Virus record (IMG/VR): IMGVR_UViG_2695420871_000012
DNA from: a virus
Taxonomy: Duplodnaviria > Heunggongvirae > Uroviricota > Caudoviricetes
Length of the DNA: 29,870 bases
Direction: 5' to 3' (one strand)
Each line of letters begins with the position of its first letter. Position 1 is the first letter of the stretch. Shown here piece by piece: positions 1 to 11,190 of the stretch. Made by a program: the position numbers and the translations under genes. The notes beneath the pieces were generated by a model. It was not told the origin of the DNA. It did no database searches and saw nothing but the letters and a program-made list of their open reading frames with translations.

Positions 1-158
1 TATATTAAAATATTTTCTCCATCTGGAAATATTTTAGCCACACAATATAAAGCAGCTGAATCCGAATTACTTAAAAATATATTATCATCACCCATAACTC
101 CAGCCATTAAATGACTGGAGACTAAAGCAAGGAAATAACAACATTGTATTGCCTTCAT
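1..158 (-). CDS. Partial CDS (5' end only, runs off window start): hypothetical protein directly downstream of the Rhs toxin tip, candidate Rhs immunity protein; hydrophobic N-terminus MKAIQCCYFLALVSSHLMAG
   Basis: ATG at 158-156 (minus) lies 2 nt after the Rhs stop (160-162); open frame continues to window edge; AT-rich like the toxin tip. Function inferred from position only. Confidence 0.3.
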   Translation of the reverse strand, partial: MKAIQCCYFLALVSSHLMAGVMGDDNIFLSNSDSAALYCVAKIFPDGENILI

Positions 159-159
159 T

Positions 160-1095
160 TTAATTACTCCCTTGCCTGATAATTGTAACTCCATTCCCTT
201 TAGCTTTGGGATTATATTTTAGATAGGTGTTATTTGGTGTTCCCAAGTAACTACTGTATTCTTTTTTTCCCATTCCATTCATATAAGAATTCGTTAAATC
301 TTTGCTTGAAAAATTTAGACTATCATAAACATCATTTTCTTTTGTTACTTTATTTCCTTTATCGTCAGAGTAAAAACCGTGAGTGTGATAATCGCCTACT
401 CTCTCTGAACCTTCAGGGCATTTTATATTTCGCAAGTCTACACTATCATTATCATTTGAACTTATCGGATTCATGGGGAAATATTCACCTTGCTTCTTAC
501 ATATTAGTCCACCATATTCTTTATTCTCGTTAATTGATTCTCCATTACACATTGCCAATGCAAATATTCCAATATCATCAATATTTTTTGATTTAAATTC
601 ATATAATCCTAATGGATCCATGCTATTCACCGGGCTCAGCGGATATGTATACAGGTTCCATCCCCCCTTCAGCCCAATCGGATCCTGAGTGATATACCGC
701 CCCTGCAGCGGGTCATAATAGCGGTGGCGGTTATAATACAGGCCGGACTCCTCATCATACTGCTGCCCCGGCAAACGAATAAGCTGCTGCAGCTGATGCG
801 GGTTCTCTTCATTCAGCAGGTTGCCCCATTCATCATATTCCCGGCGTATTTCCAGCCCGTCAGGCCCGGTGGCTGACGTTAACTGGCTGTGGTGGTTATA
901 GTAAAACGCCGATGCCCTGCCATCCGGCGTGGTGATGCGCGTGATGAGACCCGTCACCACATCCGGGCTGTATTCTGTTGTCCGGCCTGCGGCATCCGTC
1001 TGTGTCCTGAGCCTGCCCACGGCGTCAAACTGACTCTGCGTGACGCTGCCGTCCGCGTGTTCCTTTTTCACCACCCGCTTCAGCCCGGCTTCACC
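160..1095 (-). CDS. Rhs-family protein C-terminal fragment: end of conserved RHS core (…[40 protein letters not shown]) followed by ~150-aa AT-rich variable toxin tip; 5'-truncated (no credible start, in-frame TAG at 1096-1098, IS end at 1106)
   Basis: ORF track 160..1074 plus in-frame extension to 1095; RHS core hallmark DPxGL at ~607-621 (minus); sharp drop in GC content after the motif. Confidence 0.7.
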
Positions 1096-1164
1096 CTACG
1101 TGTGCTGTCAACGCCACGATGTTTGACCGTTATTTGCCATTTTCATGCCCGCTAAATACTTTCG

Positions 1165-3134
<1,970 letters not shown>

Positions 3135-3324
3135 GTTGATGTCCTTTCTGGTGTGAGAACCTTAAGGAAACAACATGTTGGGTGGAGCGGACAATCCAAA
3201 TGGCGAATTACCGTCTTATATCACTGGCGCTGACATCTCCGGATGACGGGGGCAGCTGTTATCTCTGGCTCAACCGTGGGCAACCACCCGCAGTTAACCG
3301 GCGACGATAAACGCAGGGTGAATT

Positions 3325-3900
3325 ATGGCGATAAAAGGGCTTGATCAGGCGATTGACAATCTGAGCCGGGTTCGTAAAAACGCCATTCCGGCTGCTTCTG
3401 CAATGACCATTAACCGCGTGGCCACAACGGCGATTAATCAGTCTTCGTCACAGGTTGCCCGGGAAACCAGGGTGAGACGGAAACTGGTAAAGGAACGGTC
3501 CAGACTGAAACGGGCGACGGTCAGAAATCCGAATGCCAGAATTATCGTTAACCGCGGTGATCTCCCTGTGATTAAGCTGGGGATCAGAATGCTGGGGCGT
3601 CGTCCGAACAGCATACTCAAAGCCGGTCAGCATCGTTATCAGCGGGCATTTATCCAGCGATTAAATAATGGGCGCTGGCATGTTATGCAACGTCTTCCCC
3701 AGGCCAGATATGAGGAGGGCAATGACGACAAGGGAAGGAAAAAGCGTAATCGCCTTCCCATTCAGGTGGTGAAAATCCCGATGGCGGCCCCACTGAAACA
3801 GGCATTTGATGAGAATGTTGACCGTATCCGGCGTGAACGCCTGCCTAAAGAACTGGCATACGCGCTGAAACAACAACTGAGGATTGCGATAAAACGATGA
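3325..3900 (+). CDS. Z: Lambda Z-like tail completion protein
   Basis: 191 aa, recognisably similar to lambda gpZ from start (MAIKGL…) to end (…RERLPKEL.YAL..QLR…IKR); synteny with U, V, G. Confidence 0.85.
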   Translation: MAIKGLDQAIDNLSRVRKNAIPAASAMTINRVATTAINQSSSQVARETRVRRKLVKERSRLKRATVRNPNARIIVNRGDLPVIKLGIRMLGRRPNSILKAGQHRYQRAFIQRLNNGRWHVMQRLPQARYEEGNDDKGRKKRNRLPIQVVKIPMAAPLKQAFDENVDRIRRERLPKELAYALKQQLRIAIKR

Positions 3901-4292
3901 AACACACTGACATTCGTGCCGCAGTGCTGGATGCACTCGAGCAGCATGAACACGGGGCGACGCTGTTTGATGGTCGCCCCGTTGTTTTTGACGAAGAGGA
4001 TTTTCCTGCGATCGCGGTTTATCTGACGGATGCAGAGTATACCGGTGAAGAGCTGGATGCAGATACCTGGCGGGCCACACTGCATATTGAGGTGTTTTTA
4101 CCGGCACAGGTACCTGATTCGGAGCTCGATCAGTGGATGGAAAGCCGGATTTATCCGGCGATGACTGCGATCCCTGCACTGGCAGGACTGATTACCACGA
4201 TGGTTACGCAGGGCTATGAGTATCGTCGTGATGACGATATGGCGTTATGGAGCTCTGCGGATCTGACTTATTCCATTACATACGAGATGTGA
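3897..4292 (+). CDS. U: Lambda U-like tail tube terminator protein
   Basis: 131 aa, same length as lambda gpU; start overlaps Z stop (ATGA). Confidence 0.88.
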
Positions 4293-4299
4293 GGACGAT

Positions 4300-5052
4300 A
4301 TGGCAACACCAAATCCCCTGGAGCCGGTAAAAGGTGCCGGTACCACTCTGTGGGTTTACAACGGCAAGGCTGATGCTTATGCAAACCCGTTGTCAGACGA
4401 TGACTGGCAGCGACTGGCTAAGGTGAAGGATCTGACGCCGGGCGAGATGACGGCTGAATCCTATGATGATAACTACCTGGATGATGAAGACGCGGACTGG
4501 AGCGCGACCGGGCAGGGGCAGAAATCTGCAGGTGATACCAGTTTTACGCTGGCCTGGAAACCGGGAGAGGAAGGCCAGAAAGGGCTTATAGGCTGGTTTG
4601 AAAGCGGCGATGTCCGGGCCTATAAAATCCGTTTTCCGAATGGCACGGTGGATGTGTTTCGTGGCTGGGTCAGCAGTATCGGTAAGGCCGTGACGGCGAA
4701 AGAAGTGATCACCCGCACGGTGAAAGTCACTAACGTGGGTAAACCTTCTGTAGCGGAAGAACGCAGCAAAATTACGCCGGTCAGTGCGATTAAGGTGACG
4801 CCGACATCCGGTACGGTGGCAAAAGGGAAAACAACCACCCTGACGGTTTCTTTTGAGCCGGAAAGTGCAACCGACAAGACGTTCAGAGCGGTTTCCGCCG
4901 ATCCGTCGAAAGCCACCATTAGTGTGAAAGATATGACAATTACGGTAAACGGCGTGGCGACAGGTAAGGTGCAGATCCCTGTGGTGAGCGGAAATGGTCA
5001 GTTCGCCGCAGTGGCTGAAGTCACCGTTACTGAAGCGGGCGCTGCAGGGTAA
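4300..5052 (+). CDS. V: Lambda V-like major tail tube protein with C-terminal Ig-like domain
   Basis: 250 aa; conserved stretches such as [65 protein letters not shown]. Confidence 0.9.
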
Positions 5053-5065
5053 ACGGAGGTAATAC

Positions 5066-5497
5066 ATGTTTCTGAAAACAGAACAATTTGAATATAACGG
5101 TGTGTCTGTCACGCTTTCCGAATTGTCTGCGCTGCAGCGTATCGAGCATCTTGCCCTCCTGAAACGGCGTGCAGAACAGGCAGAATCCAGCGGCAACCTG
5201 CAGGTAAGCGTGGAAGATCTCGTCAGAACCGGCGCGTTTCTGGTGGCGATGTCCCTGTGGCATAACCATCCACAGAAAACGCAGTCACCGTCAATGAATG
5301 AGGCCGTGATGAAGATAGAGCAGGAAGTGCTCACCACCTGGCCTGCCGATGCCATTGCCCGGGCGGAAGACGTGGTGTTGTGCCTGTCCGGGATGATCGA
5401 AGCTGTTCGTCCGGATACTGATATTACTGAAGTGGCGAAAAATAACACGCTGACTGATGATGATTTTTCTGCGGGAAAGTCTTCGACGGCGAGCTGA
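5066..5497 (+). CDS. G: Lambda G-like tail assembly chaperone
   Basis: 143 aa (MFLKTE…); ends just after the slippery heptamer. Confidence 0.85.
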   Translation: MFLKTEQFEYNGVSVTLSELSALQRIEHLALLKRRAEQAESSGNLQVSVEDLVRTGAFLVAMSLWHNHPQKTQSPSMNEAVMKIEQEVLTTWPADAIARAEDVVLCLSGMIEAVRPDTDITEVAKNNTLTDDDFSAGKSSTAS

Positions 5498-5937
5498 ACT
5501 TTGCCCTCAGACTGGCGCGTGAGATGGGGAGACCCGACTGGCGCGCCATGCTTGCCGGGATGACATCCACCGAATATGCCGACTGGCACCGTTTTTACCG
5601 CACGCATTATTTTCAGGATACCCAGCTGGATATGCATTTTTCCGGGCTGACGTACGCTGTACTCAGCCTGTTTTTTTGCGATCCGGATATGCATCCCTCT
5701 GATTTCAGTCTGCTTGTCCCCCGGCATGAGGAAGAGCAGGTGGAGAGGCCGGATGAGGACAAAATGCTGATGCAGAAAGCGGCAGGACTTGCCGGAGGCG
5801 TCCGGTTCGGTGGGGACGGAGGGCGCGATATTTTATCGTCTGCGGATGTGGCGGATGTCATGGTGGATGATGCCGCATTAATGATGGCTTCAGCGGGGAT
5901 TCCGGGAGGTGTGAGATATGTCCCAGCCGGTTGGTGA
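5066..5937 (+). CDS. GT: G-T tail assembly chaperone fusion produced by programmed -1 ribosomal frameshift at GGGAAAG (5473-5479)
   Basis: The -1 frame after the heptamer is open to 5937 and encodes VFDGELNFAL.LAREMGRPDWRAMLAGM.STEYADWHRFY, matching the lambda gpT region. Confidence 0.75.
5473..5479 (+). promoter_or_regulatory. Slippery heptamer G_GGA_AAG for the G/GT -1 programmed frameshift
   Basis: Heptamer in the zero frame of G (codons GGA AAG) at the position expected from lambda. Confidence 0.7.
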
Positions 5938-8491
5938 TCTTGTTATTGACCTGAGTCTGGATGCTGTCCGTTTCGATGAGCAGATGAGCCGGGTAAGGCG
6001 TCATTTTTCAGGTCTGGATACCGACGCCAGAAAAACCGCCAGTGCTGTTGAACAGGGCCTGAGCCGCCAGGCGCTGGCTGCACAAAAAGCCGGGATTTCC
6101 GTCGGGCAGTATAAAGCGGCCATGCGAACCCTGCCCGCACAGTTTACGGATATCGCCACGCAGCTTGCCGGTGGTCAGAATCCCTGGCTGATCCTGCTGC
6201 AACAGGGCGGTCAGGTGAAGGACTCCTTCGGCGGGATGATCCCCATGTTCAGGGGGCTTGCCGATGCGATCACCCTGCCGATGGTCGGGGTCACCTCGCT
6301 GGCGGTGGCGACAGGTGCACTGGTGTACGCCTGGTACCAGGGAGATTCCACGCTTTCAGCGTTTAATAAAACCCTGGTTCTTTCCGGTAATCAGTCCGGA
6401 CTGACTGCCGATCGTATGCTGACTCTCTCAAGAGCCGGGCAGGCAGCAGGGCTGACGTTTAACCAGGCGAGAGAGTCACTGGCAGCCCTGGTGAATGCCG
6501 GTGTGCGTGGTGGTGAACAGTTTGATGCCATCAACCAGAGTGTCGCGCGTTTTGCGTCTGCATCCGGTGTGGAGGTGGATAAAGTCGCTGAAGCCTTCGG
6601 GAAGCTGACCACTGACCCGACGTCGGGACTGATGGCGATGGCGCGCCAGTTCCGTAACGTGACGGCAGAGCAGATTGCGTATGTTGCACAGCTGCAGCGT
6701 TCCGGAGACGAGGCCGGGGCATTGCAGGCGGCGAACGATATCGCCACGAAAGGCTTTGATGAGCAGACCCGTCGCCTGAAAGAAAACATGGGAACACTGG
6801 AGACCTGGGCGGATAAAACAGGGAAGGCATTCAAATCGATGTGGGATGCCATTCTGGATATCGGTCGTCCGGAATCCTCAGCGGATATGCTCGCCAGTGC
6901 GCAGAAGGCATTTGATGAGGCGGATAAAAAATGGCAGTGGTACCAGAGTCGGAGCCAGCGCCGCGGTAAAACCTCCTCTTTCCGGGCCAACCTTCAGGGC
7001 GCATGGGATGACCGGGAAAATGCCCGTCTGGGTCTGGCAGCGGCAACGCTGCAGTCGGATATGGAAAAAGCCGGTGAACTGGCGGCAAGGGACAGGGCTG
7101 AGCGTGAGTCGTCACAGCTGAAGTATACCGGAGAGGCGCAGAAGGCGTATGAGCGCCTGCTGACGCCACTGGAGAAATATACCGCCCGGCAGGAAGAGCT
7201 GAATAAGGCCCTGAAAGACGGGAAAATCCTGCAGGCGGATTACAACACGCTGATGGCGTCGGCAAAAAAGGATTATGAGTCGACGCAGAAAAAGCCGTCC
7301 GGTGTGAAGGTGTCTGCCGGTGAGCGCCAGGAAGACCAGGCGCATGCAGCCCTGCTGGCGCTTGAAACTGAGCTCAGGACGCTGGAGAAGCACAGCGGTG
7401 CGAATGAAAAAATCAGCCAGCAGCGCCGTGATTTATGGAAAGCGGAAAATCAGTATGTGGTCCTGAAAGAGGCCGCCACGAAACGGCAGTTATCTGAGCA
7501 GGAAAAATCCCTGCTGGCCCATGAGAAAGAAACGCTGGAGTACAAACGCCAGCTGGCTGAGCTGGGCGACAAGATTGAACACCAGAAACGGCTGAATGAG
7601 CTGGCACAGCAGGCGGCGCGGTTTGAACAGCAGCAGAGCGCGAAGCAGGCGGCAATCAGCGCAAAAGCCCGCGGACTCACCGACCGTCAGGCGCAGCGGG
7701 AGTCGGAAGAGCAGCGCCTTCGTGAGGTGTACGGTGATAATCCGGCTGCGCTGGCGAAGGCCACATCTGCACTGAAGAACACCTGGTCTGCGGAGGAGCA
7801 GCTTCGTGGAAGCTGGATGGCCGGGATGAAGTCCGGCTGGGGCGAGTGGGCGGAAAGTGCGACGGACAGTTTTTCGCAGGTTAAAAACGCGGCCACGCAG
7901 ACCTTTGACGGTATTGCACAGAATATGGCAGCGATGCTGATCGGCAGCGAACAGAACTGGCGTGGTTTCACCCGTTCTGTGCTGTCCATGCTGACAGAGA
8001 TTTTTCTGAAGCAGGCGATGGTGGGGATAGTCGGGAGTATCGGCAGCGCCATTGGCGGTGCTTTCGGTGGTGGTGCGTCTGCCTCCACGGGGACGGCCAT
8101 TCAGGCTGCGGCGGCGAACTTCCATTTCGCGACCGGGGGATTTACGGGGACGGGGGGTAAATATGAACCTGCGGGGATTGTTCATCGCGGGGAGTTTGTC
8201 TTCACGAAGGAGGCGACCAGCCGGATTGGTGTCGGCAATCTGTACCGCCTGATGCGGGGCTATGCGGAAAGTGGTTATGTCGGCGGTGCCGGAAGTCCGG
8301 CGCAGATGCGGCGGGCGGAAGGCATTAATTTTAATCAGAACAATCACGTGGTGATTCAGAACGACGGCCCCAACGGGCGGGCAGGGCCGCAGCTGATGAA
8401 AGCGGTGTATGAGATGGCCCGCAAGGGGGCACAGGATGAACTCCGGCTGCAGTTGCGTGATGGCGGTATGTTATCAGGGAGCGGTGGATGA
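5918..8491 (+). CDS. H: Lambda H-like tail tape measure protein
   Basis: 857 aa (lambda gpH is about 853 aa); position between GT and M; start overlaps the T frame. Confidence 0.9.
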   Translation: MSQPVGDLVIDLSLDAVRFDEQMSRVRRHFSGLDTDARKTASAVEQGLSRQALAAQKAGISVGQYKAAMRTLPAQFTDIATQLAGGQNPWLILLQQGGQVKDSFGGMIPMFRGLADAITLPMVGVTSLAVATGALVYAWYQGDSTLSAFNKTLVLSGNQSGLTADRMLTLSRAGQAAGLTFNQARESLAALVNAGVRGGEQFDAINQSVARFASASGVEVDKVAEAFGKLTTDPTSGLMAMARQFRNVTAEQIAYVAQLQRSGDEAGALQAANDIATKGFDEQTRRLKENMGTLETWADKTGKAFKSMWDAILDIGRPESSADMLASAQKAFDEADKKWQWYQSRSQRRGKTSSFRANLQGAWDDRENARLGLAAATLQSDMEKAGELAARDRAERESSQLKYTGEAQKAYERLLTPLEKYTARQEELNKALKDGKILQADYNTLMASAKKDYESTQKKPSGVKVSAGERQEDQAHAALLALETELRTLEKHSGANEKISQQRRDLWKAENQYVVLKEAATKRQLSEQEKSLLAHEKETLEYKRQLAELGDKIEHQKRLNELAQQAARFEQQQSAKQAAISAKARGLTDRQAQRESEEQRLREVYGDNPAALAKATSALKNTWSAEEQLRGSWMAGMKSGWGEWAESATDSFSQVKNAATQTFDGIAQNMAAMLIGSEQNWRGFTRSVLSMLTEIFLKQAMVGIVGSIGSAIGGAFGGGASASTGTAIQAAAANFHFATGGFTGTGGKYEPAGIVHRGEFVFTKEATSRIGVGNLYRLMRGYAESGYVGGAGSPAQMRRAEGINFNQNNHVVIQNDGPNGRAGPQLMKAVYEMARKGAQDELRLQLRDGGMLSGSGG

Positions 8492-8817
8492 AAACCTTTC
8501 GCTGGAAAGTGAAGCCGGATATGGAGGTGAACTCGCAGCCATCGGTGCGTGAAGTGCGTTTTGGTGACGGGTACTCACAGCGTATGGCGGCAGGGCTGAA
8601 TGCTGACCTGAAAACATACAGGGTGACGCTTTCCGTGACCCGGGAGGAGGCCCGGCATCTGGAAGCGTTCCTGGCAGAGCACGGTGGCTGGAAGGCATTT
8701 TTGTGGAAGCCACCCTATGCATACCGGCAGATAAAGGTGACCTGTGCCGGGTGGTCTGCGCGGGTCGGGATGTTGCGCGTTGAGTTCAGCGCGGAGTTTA
8801 AGCAGGTGGTGAACTGA
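8488..8817 (+). CDS. M: Lambda M-like minor tail protein
   Basis: 109 aa, same length as lambda gpM; overlapping start/stop with H and L. Confidence 0.85.
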   Translation: MKTFRWKVKPDMEVNSQPSVREVRFGDGYSQRMAAGLNADLKTYRVTLSVTREEARHLEAFLAEHGGWKAFLWKPPYAYRQIKVTCAGWSARVGMLRVEFSAEFKQVVN

Positions 8818-9515
8818 TGCAGGATATTCGCGAAGAAAGTCTGAACGAGTCGGTTAAGTCAGAGCAGTCACCGCGGGTGGTACTCTGGGAAATCGACCTG
8901 ACGGTACAGGGTGGTGAGCGGTATTTTTTCTGTAATGAGCTGAATGAAAAAGGGGAGCCGGTCACCTGGCAGGGGCGTAAGTATGAGGCATACCCGATTG
9001 ACGGCAGCGGCTTTGAGATGAACGGCCGGGGCAGCAGTGCCAGACCGTCGCTGACGGTGTCCAATCTGTTCGGTCTGGTCACCGGGATGGCGGAAGACCT
9101 GCAGAGTCTGGTGGGGGCCACGGTGGTCCGCCGCCGGGTGTATGCCCGTTTTCTGGATGCGGTGAATTTCGTTGCGGGCAATCCGGAGGCGGACCCGGAG
9201 CAGGAGCTGAGTGACCGCTGGGTGGTGGAGCAGATGTCGCAGCTGACAGCCATGACGGCCTCGTTTGTGCTGGCTACACCGACCGAGACGGACGGGGCGC
9301 TGTTTCCCGGTCGCATCATGCTGGCGAACACCTGTATGTGGGATTACCGGGGAGATGAATGCGGGTATAACGGTCCTGCGGTGGCGGATGAGTTCGACAA
9401 CCCCACCACGGATATCCGTAAGGACAGATGCAGCAAGTGCATGCGCGGGTGTGAACTGCGCAGGAATGTCGGCAATTTTGGCGGTTTCCTTTCCATTAAT
9501 AAACTTTCGCAGTAA
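8817..9515 (+). CDS. L: Lambda L-like minor tail (tail tip) protein
   Basis: 232 aa, same length as lambda gpL; C-terminal Cys cluster (CSKCMRGC). Confidence 0.85.
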   Translation: MQDIREESLNESVKSEQSPRVVLWEIDLTVQGGERYFFCNELNEKGEPVTWQGRKYEAYPIDGSGFEMNGRGSSARPSLTVSNLFGLVTGMAEDLQSLVGATVVRRRVYARFLDAVNFVAGNPEADPEQELSDRWVVEQMSQLTAMTASFVLATPTETDGALFPGRIMLANTCMWDYRGDECGYNGPAVADEFDNPTTDIRKDRCSKCMRGCELRRNVGNFGGFLSINKLSQ

Positions 9516-9525
9516 ATCCCGGTTT

Positions 9526-10269
9526 ATGACACAGACTGAATCAGCGATTCTGGCACATGCCCGGCGGTGTGCGCCTGCGGAGTCGTGCGGCTTCGTGATA
9601 AGCACGCCGGAGGGGGAGCGGTATATCCCTTGTGTGAATATTTCCGCAGAGCCGGAGGCGTATTTTCGTATCGCACCGGAAGACTGGCTGCGGGCAGAGA
9701 TGCAGGGGGAGATTGTGGCACTGGTCCACAGTCATCCCGGTGGGCTGCCCTGGCTGAGCGAGGCTGACCGGCGGTTGCAGATAAAAAGCGCACTGCCCTG
9801 GTGGTTGGTCTGCCGGGGTGACATTCACAAATTCCGCTGTGTGCCACATCTGACAGGACGGCGCTTTGAGCACGGGGTGACGGACTGTTACACGCTGTTC
9901 CGGGATGCTTATCATCTGGCGGGGACTGAAATGCCGGATTTTCATCGCGAGGATGACTGGTGGCGCAACGGTCAGAACCTTTACCTGGACAATATGGCGG
10001 TCACCGGCTTTTACCGGGTGCCCCTGTCCTCTGCACAGGCGGGCGATATTCTGCTGTGCTGCTTTGGTGCTTCGGTACCGAACCATGCCGCCATTTACTG
10101 CGGCAACGGTGAGCTGCTTCACCATCTGCCTGAACAACTGAGTAAACGGGAGAGGTATTCCGAAAAATGGCAACGACGAACGCATTCAGTCTGGCGTCAC
10201 CGCCACTGGCACGCATCTGCCTTCACGGGGATTTACAACGATTTGGCCGCCGCCTCAGCCTGTATGTGA
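9526..10269 (+). CDS. K: Lambda K-like tail tip assembly protein (JAMM/MPN motif HSHPGGLPWLSEAD plus NlpC/P60-like Cys-His domain)
   Basis: Start MTQTESAIL at 9526 inside the longer ORF 9265..10269; JAMM H-x-H-x7-S-x2-D motif; 103-nt overlap with I, as in lambda. Confidence 0.85.
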   Translation: MTQTESAILAHARRCAPAESCGFVISTPEGERYIPCVNISAEPEAYFRIAPEDWLRAEMQGEIVALVHSHPGGLPWLSEADRRLQIKSALPWWLVCRGDIHKFRCVPHLTGRRFEHGVTDCYTLFRDAYHLAGTEMPDFHREDDWWRNGQNLYLDNMAVTGFYRVPLSSAQAGDILLCCFGASVPNHAAIYCGNGELLHHLPEQLSKRERYSEKWQRRTHSVWRHRHWHASAFTGIYNDLAAASACM

Positions 10270-10847
10270 ACACGGCAGCGGAAGCCATTCGCGCCCTGTC
10301 GATGCAGATGCCGGGCTTTCGCCGTCAGATGAACGAAGGCTGGTACCAGATACGTATTGCCGGTTATGACACGGCACCGGAGGCGGTGTACGCCCGTCTT
10401 CACGAACAGCTGGGTGAGGGAACGGTCATCCACATTGTGCCGCGACTGGCCGGGGCCGGAAAGGGTGGACTGCAGATTGTGCTGGGGGCGGCAGCCATCG
10501 TGGGCTCTTTCTTCACTGCCGGGGCATCAATGGCGTTATGGGGTTCAGCCCTGGCAGCCGGTGGTTTTTCTGCCACCACGATGCTGTTTTCACTTGGAGC
10601 CAGCATGATTCTGGGCGGTGTGGCCCAGATGCTGGCCCCGAAGGCAAAAACACCGGATTACCGCGCAACGGATAACGGCAGACAGAACACGTACTTTTCC
10701 TCACTGGATAACATGATTGCCCAGGGGAACCCGATGCCGGTGCCTTACGGGGAAATGCTGGTTGGCTCCCGCCGTATATCCCAGGACATCAGCACCCGTG
10801 ATGAAGGCGGGGGCGGAAAGGTCGTGGTTATCGGGCGGCAGGGGTAA
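10167..10847 (+). CDS. I: Lambda I-like tail tip assembly protein
   Basis: 226 aa; conserved ARICL.GDLQRFGRR and hydrophobic Gly/Ala-rich segment; YFSSLDNM.AQGN. Confidence 0.85.
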   Translation: MATTNAFSLASPPLARICLHGDLQRFGRRLSLYVNTAAEAIRALSMQMPGFRRQMNEGWYQIRIAGYDTAPEAVYARLHEQLGEGTVIHIVPRLAGAGKGGLQIVLGAAAIVGSFFTAGASMALWGSALAAGGFSATTMLFSLGASMILGGVAQMLAPKAKTPDYRATDNGRQNTYFSSLDNMIAQGNPMPVPYGEMLVGSRRISQDISTRDEGGGGKVVVIGRQG

Positions 10848-11056
10848 AAAGAATAAAAAAATCCCGCAGTGATCGCGGACAGGAACTGCGGGAGAGTTAC
10901 GAAGATTAAGTGTAAGGAATTATTCTTATATCACGACAAAAAAATTAACGCAGAGAAATTATACGCGCCACAGTCAGTTTGTGAAAATGTGAAGATATTC
11001 AGAATTTTTATGCCATTACCGGTTTTAACCAACAGGATTATCGGTGGGCATGAAAG

Positions 11057-11093
11057 AAAACCCCGGTATCTGCTGATACCGGGGTTTCTCTTT
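11057..11093. terminator. GC-rich stem-loop (CCCCGGTATC/GATACCGGGG) flanked by T-runs on both strands; candidate bidirectional rho-independent terminator inside the I-J insert
   Basis: Perfect 10-bp stem, 4-nt loop, followed by TTTCTCTTT on plus and TTTTCTTTC on minus. Confidence 0.45.
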
Positions 11094-11190
11094 AGCATGG
11101 CAGAAATGTGTTTCATGCTTTTCGGGCGAAGGATATCCGACTTCTGTACGGAATGGCAAGTGGCGGTTAATTTATTCAGGGGAAGGCTGT

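Follow-up and report, generated by a model that had tools for sequence, protein, structure and literature searches.

The first 1105 positions of a 29,870-nucleotide stretch of DNA catalogued as viral (Caudoviricetes; IMG/VR record IMGVR_UViG_2695420871_000012; the whole stretch is called the window below) hold what sequence comparison identifies as the 3' remnant of the rpmE-yiiX rhs gene of Escherichia coli and Shigella, cut by an IS21-family insertion sequence (IS). The remnant comprises a piece of Rhs core, a C-terminal toxin tip of the Tox-JAB-2 (DUF4329) family and the beginning of an adjoining small gene, dsORF-f3. The explanation preferred here for the whole arrangement, with a probability of roughly 0.6, is that this decayed copy carries a tip that would act in the periplasm, next to the gene for an exported protein that would inhibit it.

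The locus, the domain family and the protein annotation are already known, and the compartment is the only new point. In itself the locus is of little weight, as one more IS-riddled pseudogene in a Shigella-type genome. Its tip is among the commonest Rhs tips of E. coli, O157:H7 included, and surveys label the tip family a ribonuclease (RNase), a label for which no experimental support was found in the literature. Neither Pfam nor NCBIfam has a model for the partner immunity family, which spans phyla and mostly bears export-type signals; that the partners are mostly predicted to be exported argues for Tox-JAB-2 being an enzyme aimed at the envelope rather than an RNase. If so, Tox-JAB-2 would be the first JAB-fold toxin of the cell wall and would found a new enzymatic class among the effectors of type VI secretion systems (T6SS) that target the envelope, and effector annotations in E. 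coli, Shigella, Salmonella and T6SS surveys would stand to be corrected.

The rhs fragment and its toxin tip

All features of the rhs fragment are on the minus strand:

1096..1098, minus: in-frame TAG, a CAG>TAG nonsense change relative to uninterrupted alleles (aligned with three E. coli alleles)
1095..163, minus: open rhs frame, 311 codons, from translation
622..1095, minus: Rhs core remnant, 158 codons, a chimera of full-length residues 403-501 and about 1136-1241
604..618, minus: DPLGL, the Rhs autoproteolysis/demarcation motif (PxxxxDPxGL), from translation, at the end of the TIGR03696 Rhs_assc_core match
163..621, minus: Tox-JAB-2/DUF4329 toxin domain, 153 codons from MDPLGL
519-517, 387-385, 381-379, 309-307 and 300-298, minus: catalytic-type residues E35, H79, H81, S105 and D108, respectively
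162-160, minus: TAA stop of the rhs frame, a single base (159) before the downstream ATG
1..158, minus: first 52 codons of a dsORF-f3-family gene (107 amino acids when intact), running off the start of the window
90..158, minus: predicted Sec-type signal peptide of that gene, codons 1-23, MKAIQCCYFLALVSSHLMAGVMG, with V at -3 and G at -1

The core contains RHS/YD repeats (PF05593, E 2e-18, four stretches; TIGR01643, E 8e-11) and an Rhs-associated core domain (TIGR03696, E 4e-24; 85 bits, cut-off 32.5), and ends in the PxxxxDPxGL motif, which lies at 604-633. With 288 bits, the fragment falls below the 2000-bit cut-off of the NCBIfam RHS_core equivalog; it begins at full-length residue 403, is missing about 635 shell residues, and does not combine a complete shell and an N-terminal PAAR-like delivery region in one gene. 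The tip extends 147 residues past DPLGL (153 counted from MDPLGL). The G+C content of 53-63% at 600-1100, against 30-34% at 1-600, is the classic contrast between a GC-rich core and an AT-rich Rhs tip. A first-pass annotation, made from the letters of the window alone, had correctly described the core end, the DPLGL motif, the AT-rich tip of about 150 residues, a downstream gene starting 2 nt past the stop, a TAG 7 bp from the IS21-family end and the absence of the rest of the rhs gene, which here means residues 1-402 and about 502-1135. What it took for a simple end of an RHS core is indeed core, but chimeric, with a deletion of about 2.0 kb that went unseen.

That annotation also called the tip unrecognised. 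The tip matches Pfam DUF4329 (PF14220) with 60.8 bits (cut-off 28.6, E 1.5e-16), and DUF4329 is the Tox-JAB-2 of Zhang et al. 2012 (PMC3482391), a family defined by E, H[ST]H, S and D motifs and linked to RHS proteins and T6SS. The O157:H7 orthologue, z5488, has been assigned in silico to DUF4329 and described as structurally like Rpn11/proteasome lid chain 5l4k_V (PMC7216683). The suggestion of an uncharacterised toxin family holds only in part: the family was catalogued in 2012, yet no experimental characterisation of it, nuclease data included, was found in the searchable literature, and the match is thus to a known Rhs toxin domain rather than to the well-characterised one that would have told against the suggestion.

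An exhaustive search for the DUF4329 family returned 399 cluster representatives at E<=1e-3. The domain lies at most 25 residues from the C-terminus in 128 of 136 representatives, and E35, H79, H81, S105 and D108 are each kept in 131-137 of 137, the window tip having H79-T-H81. An AlphaFold model of the tip, built on a 46-sequence alignment, has a mean predicted local distance difference test (pLDDT) score of 93.2. Its structural matches in Foldseek are exclusively JAMM/MPN+ metalloenzymes, with peptidases and isopeptidases ranking above RadC. The tip is therefore modelled as a JAMM-type zinc hydrolase, with the JAB (deaminase-like alpha+beta) fold and with the E, HxH and SxxD elements intact. 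Sequence searches of the PDB gave one chance-level match for the tip alone (E 0.18, a sugar kinase) and none for the family profile.

DUF4329 members are fused to PAAR-like, VgrG-like and Rhs/YD modules, and the Salmonella loci adjoin vgrG. Signal peptides on the toxins themselves are rare (only 6-7 of 83 complete representatives), which argues for delivery by T6SS-type carriers, and the idea of a Sec-secreted toxin was dropped. Among the toxins, 21 have both Cys41 and Cys68, 112 have neither and 4 are discordant, so that the pair marks a subclade, which includes the window tip. Judged from the sequences, the pair would fit a disulfide formed in an oxidising compartment.

The partner immunity family

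The ATG of dsORF-f3 (158-156) is one base past the rhs stop, its first base being the second nucleotide after the stop. The protein opens with MKAIQCCYFLALVSSHLMAGVMGDDNIF, within the N-terminal leader listed above, and the window product shares 96% identity with the E. coli protein annotated as 'RHS element protein dsORF-f3'. The product name 'dsORF-f3' (NCBI) presumably points to the RhsF element. A paper on 'RhsFI' (PMC7618764) seemed at first to treat this immunity gene but was set aside, as it concerns ECs0604, S-loop 44, at another locus and with another toxin.

A Pfam and NCBIfam search with dsORF-f3 and 16 relatives gave nothing above noise; one sub-threshold Emfourin match (E 0.012) was not used. 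No Pfam model, Imm-NTF2-2 included, matches dsORF-f3 or its relatives even at E 1-10. Open reading frames (ORFs) of 100-109 amino acids with 19-50% identity to dsORF-f3 directly follow related tips in an Enterobacter sp. genome, a related metagenome contig, Citrobacter, Rahnella, Superficieibacter and Salmonella, and the pairing of tip and partner is kept in six enterobacterial genera. The Salmonella partner ORFs are in cassettes, in regions that also hold vgrG. Between the same relatives, toxin identity is 72-74% and partner identity 46-50%, indicating faster divergence of the partner.

The pairing extends well beyond the Enterobacterales. At 80 metagenomic loci with mainstream Tox-JAB-2, from soil and marine metagenomes, the next ORF usually has about 110 amino acids, and it overlaps the toxin stop by 4 nt in most of the loci with a measured offset. 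An hhalign comparison of the metagenomic partner-ORF alignment with the dsORF-f3 family gave 98.5% probability (E 2e-15, 90 columns), and the range of partners reaches from Enterobacterales to Verrucomicrobia-type metagenome contigs. The toxin/immunity layout proposed in the first-pass annotation is borne out by this conservation across Enterobacterales and metagenomes, and the downstream ORF proves to be the beginning of the 107-residue dsORF-f3 gene, whereas the 3' end of some unrelated gene had been a possibility.

In the AlphaFold model of dsORF-f3, a low-confidence helix (residues 4-19) and a disordered linker are followed by a helix packed on four strands (pLDDT about 90). The model resembles cystatins, PepSY domains, metalloprotease propeptides, latexin, fetuin-B and a periplasmic T6SS immunity protein. 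By its profile homology and predicted fold, dsORF-f3 represents a Pfam-less, cystatin/NTF2-like putative immunity family that follows Tox-JAB-2 across phyla.

A lipoprotein leader was also considered for this family. A cysteine is conserved close to the predicted site of cleavage, but many members carry R, K, N or P at -1, which is at odds with a lipobox, and E. coli dsORF-f3 has no cysteine there; the lipoprotein assignment was rejected.

Some loci depart from the common layout. In two metagenome loci (L028 and L052) the partner consists of tandem immunity domains, 190-194 amino acids with two repeats behind one leader. In five Verrucomicrobia-type loci (L012-L014, L058/L059), proteins of more than 2100 amino acids end in DUF4329 (the ORFs exceed the fetched DNA in L012-L014), and are followed by a secreted protein of 300-390 amino acids with a conserved PPGVPEPGLI motif and then by a protein of about 1200 amino acids, with no member of the family of about 110 amino acids. 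These loci may have a different immunity or accessory arrangement. A Salmonella enterica locus (L019, 9434-13376) has a DUF4329 cassette and its 100-residue partner, then an ORF with a CdiI domain and about eight small unannotated ORFs on the same strand, a series resembling an array of immunity genes. In a published survey of Salmonella, immunity to its DUF4329 Rhs was attributed to the CdiI-type gene, and the small ORF adjoining DUF4329 may have been overlooked.

Compartment and proposed mechanism

In general, PAAR-Rhs proteins ride on the spike of the type VI secretion system, and cleavage at DPxGL severs the tip. The combination of an effector that lacks a signal peptide with an immunity protein that is exported is characteristic of T6SS effectors acting in the periplasm, as in Tae/Tai, Tge/Tgi and Tse1/Tsi1. 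By a crude home-made rule, and with a control set that includes non-coding ORFs, export-type leaders were found on 50 of 66 distinct metagenomic partner ORFs and on 18 of 136 control ORFs from the same loci (Fisher p 1.7e-18). About 76% of partner ORFs have a leader and about 24% are leaderless, and the two immunity types are not separated by toxin architecture. All 18 leader-bearing enterobacterial members have a K/R or N start (K/R in 16/18), a hydrophobic stretch and S, G or A at -1; position -3 is mostly C, A or V.

Since most partners bear export-type leaders and the toxins rarely do, and given the cysteine pair, the peptidase-type fold and the inhibitor-like fold of the immunity protein, the tip would be a periplasmic zinc amidase, peptidase or isopeptidase. 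Once delivered to the periplasm of a target cell, such a metalloenzyme would cut a substrate in the envelope, with the peptide links of peptidoglycan or the Lpp-peptidoglycan link as candidates. The dsORF-f3 product, predicted to be exported, to have about 85 residues when mature and to adopt a cystatin/NTF2/PepSY-like fold, would shield the producer and its kin by binding and blocking the enzyme. From sequence, models and analogy with known pairs, the periplasm-acting reading of this tip is judged slightly better than an even bet. The wider generalisation, that Tox-JAB-2 tips at large are periplasmic JAMM amidases or isopeptidases delivered by PAAR, VgrG or Rhs proteins, not RNases, and are blocked by widespread exported cystatin-like inhibitors including dsORF-f3, is more tentative and falls a little short of even odds.

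Several points weigh against a periplasmic enzyme. About a quarter of the partner ORFs are leaderless, some of them beside Rhs toxins, and the signal-peptide rule is home-made and was set against controls that are in part non-coding. The spacing from HxH to SxxD (H81 to S105) is 23 residues, not the 7 of canonical JAMM isopeptidases. The substrate of the predicted enzyme is only a candidate one, and the Cys41/Cys68 pair could reflect shared ancestry alone. In addition, Zhang et al. 2012 (PMC3482391) found the ubiquitin-tail groove lost in Tox-JAB-2 and proposed a nuclease by analogy with RadC, and later papers, PMC7216683 among them, label DUF4329 an RNase, citing Ma et al. 2017.

The parent locus and decay of the window copy

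Positions 1-1105 share 99.3-99.5% identity with the E. coli rhs locus between rpmE and yiiX, where the order, in the plus-strand orientation of the window, is metJ, yiiX, an IS1 remnant, dsORF-f3, rhs and rpmE. The tip and the start of the downstream gene (1-620) were found in 2165 of 5426 complete E. coli genomes (40%), at 2182 places that are all chromosomal (median 1 per genome, highest 3), and every inspected copy of the tip is at rpmE-yiiX. In O157:H7 strain F6294 the tip ends an intact Rhs protein of 1394 amino acids, and in a Shigella flexneri locus (L007) the full-length arrangement is present at 93-97% identity. The full-length rhs locus that the first-pass annotation proposed to look for is therefore this same locus in other strains.

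A comparison with the full-length O157:H7 allele (blastn and blastp) reveals an in-frame deletion of about 2.0 kb in the window core, with its junction at about 828-840, which joins full-length residues 403-501 to about 1136-1394. The only allele colinear with the window core is a minority one, present in 45 genomes. In strain 90-3040 the deletion allele is an open frame of 713 amino acids with a PAAR-like N-terminus, which matches NCBIfam RHS_core at model positions 1-501 and then 1183-1261.

Two complete chromosomes (L104 and L107) are 100% identical to the window over 1-1105 and have the order rpmE, 5' part of rhs, IS21, fragment. The fragment is thus the 3' part of a main rhs gene split by IS21, with a 4-bp duplication, and the 'orphan' label of the first-pass annotation does not stand. 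The TAG is a point change from CAG and not a natural frame boundary. The window has a 304-residue ORF with a GTG at 1074, and the exact protein is recorded on 762 contigs under the name 'protein in rhs element [Shigella sonnei]'. Five genomes that carry the identical fragment were sampled, and each has a frameshift in the downstream gene past roughly codon 64-68, leaving 78 amino acids in four of them; this position falls beyond the window edge. The gene is frameshifted in several inspected E. coli alleles, among them O157:H7.

In O157:H7 F6294 (L102), dsORF-f3 at 7836-8158 is frameshifted and the full-length rhs at 8160-12344 is intact. An intact toxin beside a broken immunity gene would be tolerable if the toxin acts only after periplasmic delivery and the T6SS is silent.

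Decay of the window copy involved four hits: the shell deletion, the IS21 insertion, the CAG>TAG change and the downstream frameshift, the last seen in the identical genomes. Because it has no delivery module, the remnant is almost certainly inert as a weapon, and the fragment makes better sense as a relic in decay than as an orphan cassette that still works. Three points speak against inertness: the toxin domain is intact; an in-frame ATG stands directly ahead of DPLGL, with GGTGA 5 nt upstream; and the stretch of the downstream gene that would hold any frameshift is outside the window.

Alternative explanations

The most substantial alternative is that the tip is a cytoplasm-acting nuclease (RNase or DNase, by the RadC analogy) that dsORF-f3 neutralises in the cytoplasm. 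The leaderless partners, at about 24%, would suit this, and it is general knowledge that most characterised Rhs tips act in the cytoplasm; the lost ubiquitin-tail groove and the RNase label taken from Ma et al. 2017, both noted above, point the same way. An exported immunity protein cannot, however, protect a cytoplasmic target, and for that reason the export-type leaders on 76% of distinct partner ORFs and on every full-length enterobacterial member weigh against a nuclease. So do the ranking of peptidases and isopeptidases above RadC among the structural matches and the likeness of the immunity fold to protease inhibitors. Experimental nuclease data were not found in the searchable literature, and one preprint states that the activity and substrate of DUF4329 are still unknown. 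A nuclease is, on this balance, considered unlikely.

A different question is whether the fragment, whatever its target, is still a functional orphan cassette, serving as a recombination reservoir or as a toxin/immunity pair expressed from an internal start in a new role. The toxin ORF retains all its catalytic residues, about 470 nt of core homology is left, and the Prokaryotic Genome Annotation Pipeline (PGAP) calls a 153-residue protein at the ATG before DPLGL, with the GGTGA as a Shine-Dalgarno-like site. Internal promoters for tip and immunity gene have been shown in other rhs genes of enterohaemorrhagic E. coli (PMC7618764). Against this, promoter-like sites in a scan of 1-1200 are no more frequent than in shuffled sequence, genomes identical over 1-1105 have a frameshift in the downstream gene, the four independent lesions together with the frameshifted dsORF-f3 alleles form a pattern of decay, and in sister genomes the fragment is an interrupted main gene. 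Terminator-like sites in the scan number three, compared with 1.0 on average (sd 1.1) in the shuffles, and are given no weight here. A functional cassette is accordingly held to be quite improbable. Still less credit, to the point of being very improbable, is given to the view that the downstream ORF is spurious or encodes some small secreted protein unrelated to the tip. The ORF belongs to no Pfam or NCBIfam family, frameshifts in it are common in E. coli, and the Salmonella study named the CdiI-domain gene as the immunity gene; but it adjoins the toxin (one base past the stop here, a 4-nt overlap in most measured metagenomic loci), holds the same position from Enterobacterales to Verrucomicrobia-type contigs, shows strong profile-profile homology across partner ORFs, diverges faster than the toxin, as is typical of immunity genes, and has a modelled folded core.

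Relation to known systems

The closest known protein to the remnant is the O157:H7 Rhs (PGAP 'rhs element protein RhsC', WP_000014969.1), apparently the z5488 that is called 'RhsB' in PMC7216683. It has the same locus, tip and downstream dsORF-f3 gene, with 98.5% DNA identity over window positions 1-840, which hold the tip, and its PAAR-like N-terminal start is the same in the deletion alleles. Proteasome lid chain 5l4k_V, the match reported for it in that paper, is also in the Foldseek list of the window tip. By comparison, the window copy is without residues 1-402 and about 502-1135, is cut by IS21 and bears the TAG.

With Tox-JAB-2 as defined by Zhang et al. 2012, the tip shares the profile, the E/H[ST]H/S/D motif, the C-terminal place after RHS repeats and the T6SS link. 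That paper gave Imm-NTF2-2 as the partner, in 'E. coli only', and predicted a nuclease, whereas the partner described here is unmatched in Pfam, crosses phyla and mostly bears a leader. The JAMM/MPN+ structural relatives of the tip are Rpn11, CSN5, AMSH/Sst2, BRCC36, archaeal JAMM1 and bacterial Cap3 and BilC, in addition to RadC; identity to these enzymes is only 9-17%, the tip has rhs, the immunity gene and IS elements as neighbours and no ubiquitin-like substrate or partner beside it, and it represents a secreted-toxin use of the fold. Tox-JAB-1/Imm65 of Bacteroidetes Rhs proteins (PMC3482391) likewise combines a JAB tip with an immunity protein that has an export signal. It differs in belonging to another JAB clade (NxxxE motif) and in its unrelated immunity protein, Imm65 being a lipoprotein, whereas the leaders here are signal peptidase I-like with no conserved lipobox.

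The periplasmic T6SS pairs (Tae/Tai, Tge/Tgi, Tse1/Tsi1) provide a structural example in 4kt3_B. Their effectors, as a rule something other than Rhs tips, belong to the papain-like/NlpC amidases or the glycoside hydrolases; for the present tip an activity on peptidoglycan is putative. Orphan rhs toxin/immunity cassettes are reportedly present in Salmonella and Dickeya, in work attributed to Poole in 2011 and Koskiniemi in 2014. Such cassettes consist of a start-less core piece, a tip and an immunity gene, as in the window. The classical orphans, however, sit downstream of an intact main rhs gene, and the window fragment is the main gene itself, interrupted. True orphan DUF4329 cassettes occur in Salmonella regions like Salmonella pathogenicity island 6 (SPI-6).

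The IS21 element and the prophage junction

The features at the interruption are:

1102..1105: GTGC (GCAC on the coding strand), one copy of the 4-bp IS21 target duplication, from comparison with L104 and L107
1106..3235, minus: complete IS21-family element, 2130 bp, which cuts rhs; 100% identical to annotated IS21-family copies
1165-1965, minus: istB, inside the element
1962-3134, minus: istA, inside the element

The in-frame TAG is separated from the IS end at 1106 by 7 nt (1099-1105), and the terminal inverted repeats of the element are TGTCAACGCCAC.../...CTGGCGCTGACA. In L104 and L107, GCAC is present on both sides of IS21 inside rhs, as expected of a simple insertion. In the window the far side of the element (3236-3324) holds a head-tail joining (FII-like) gene of a lambdoid prophage, truncated 75 bp short of its end, and no target duplication is present at this flank. 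The left flanks in two other S. sonnei assemblies (L105 and L106) differ again. Given the varied flanks and the absence of a duplication in the window, it is likely that later recombination between IS21 copies placed the remnant beside the prophage, and the data point to repeated IS21-mediated rearrangement at the copy inserted in rhs.

Other features of the window

Beyond the IS21 element, positions 3236-18238 hold the tail module of a lambdoid prophage, with Z-like, U, V, G and T proteins, the tape measure, tip proteins and a tail fibre that has a phage_tail_N domain. This module is 99.7% identical to prophages of several E. coli genomes; its head genes are absent from the window. A perfect inverted repeat of 2089 bp (17300-19388/22554-24642; 100% complementary, 3165 bp between the arms) carries the tail-fibre C-terminal and tail-fibre-assembly (Caudo_TAP) genes in its arms, and a second perfect inverted repeat of 447 bp is located at 16883-17329/20220-20666. 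The large inverted repeats could represent an invertible or duplicated tail-fibre segment, or an artefact of rearrangement or assembly.

Between the arms of the large repeat, a 314-residue ORF (20647-21588, minus strand) encodes a type III secretion leucine-rich repeat region and the start of a NEL E3-ligase domain. It is IpaH-like and apparently truncated, and fits a Shigella origin. Three repeat copies that are 98-100% identical (21868-22167, 25038-25337 and 27226-27525) are associated with ORFs of 194-222 amino acids with an S-adenosylmethionine (SAM)-methyltransferase domain, and an IS110-family transposase gene (26147-27304) is found between the second and third copies.

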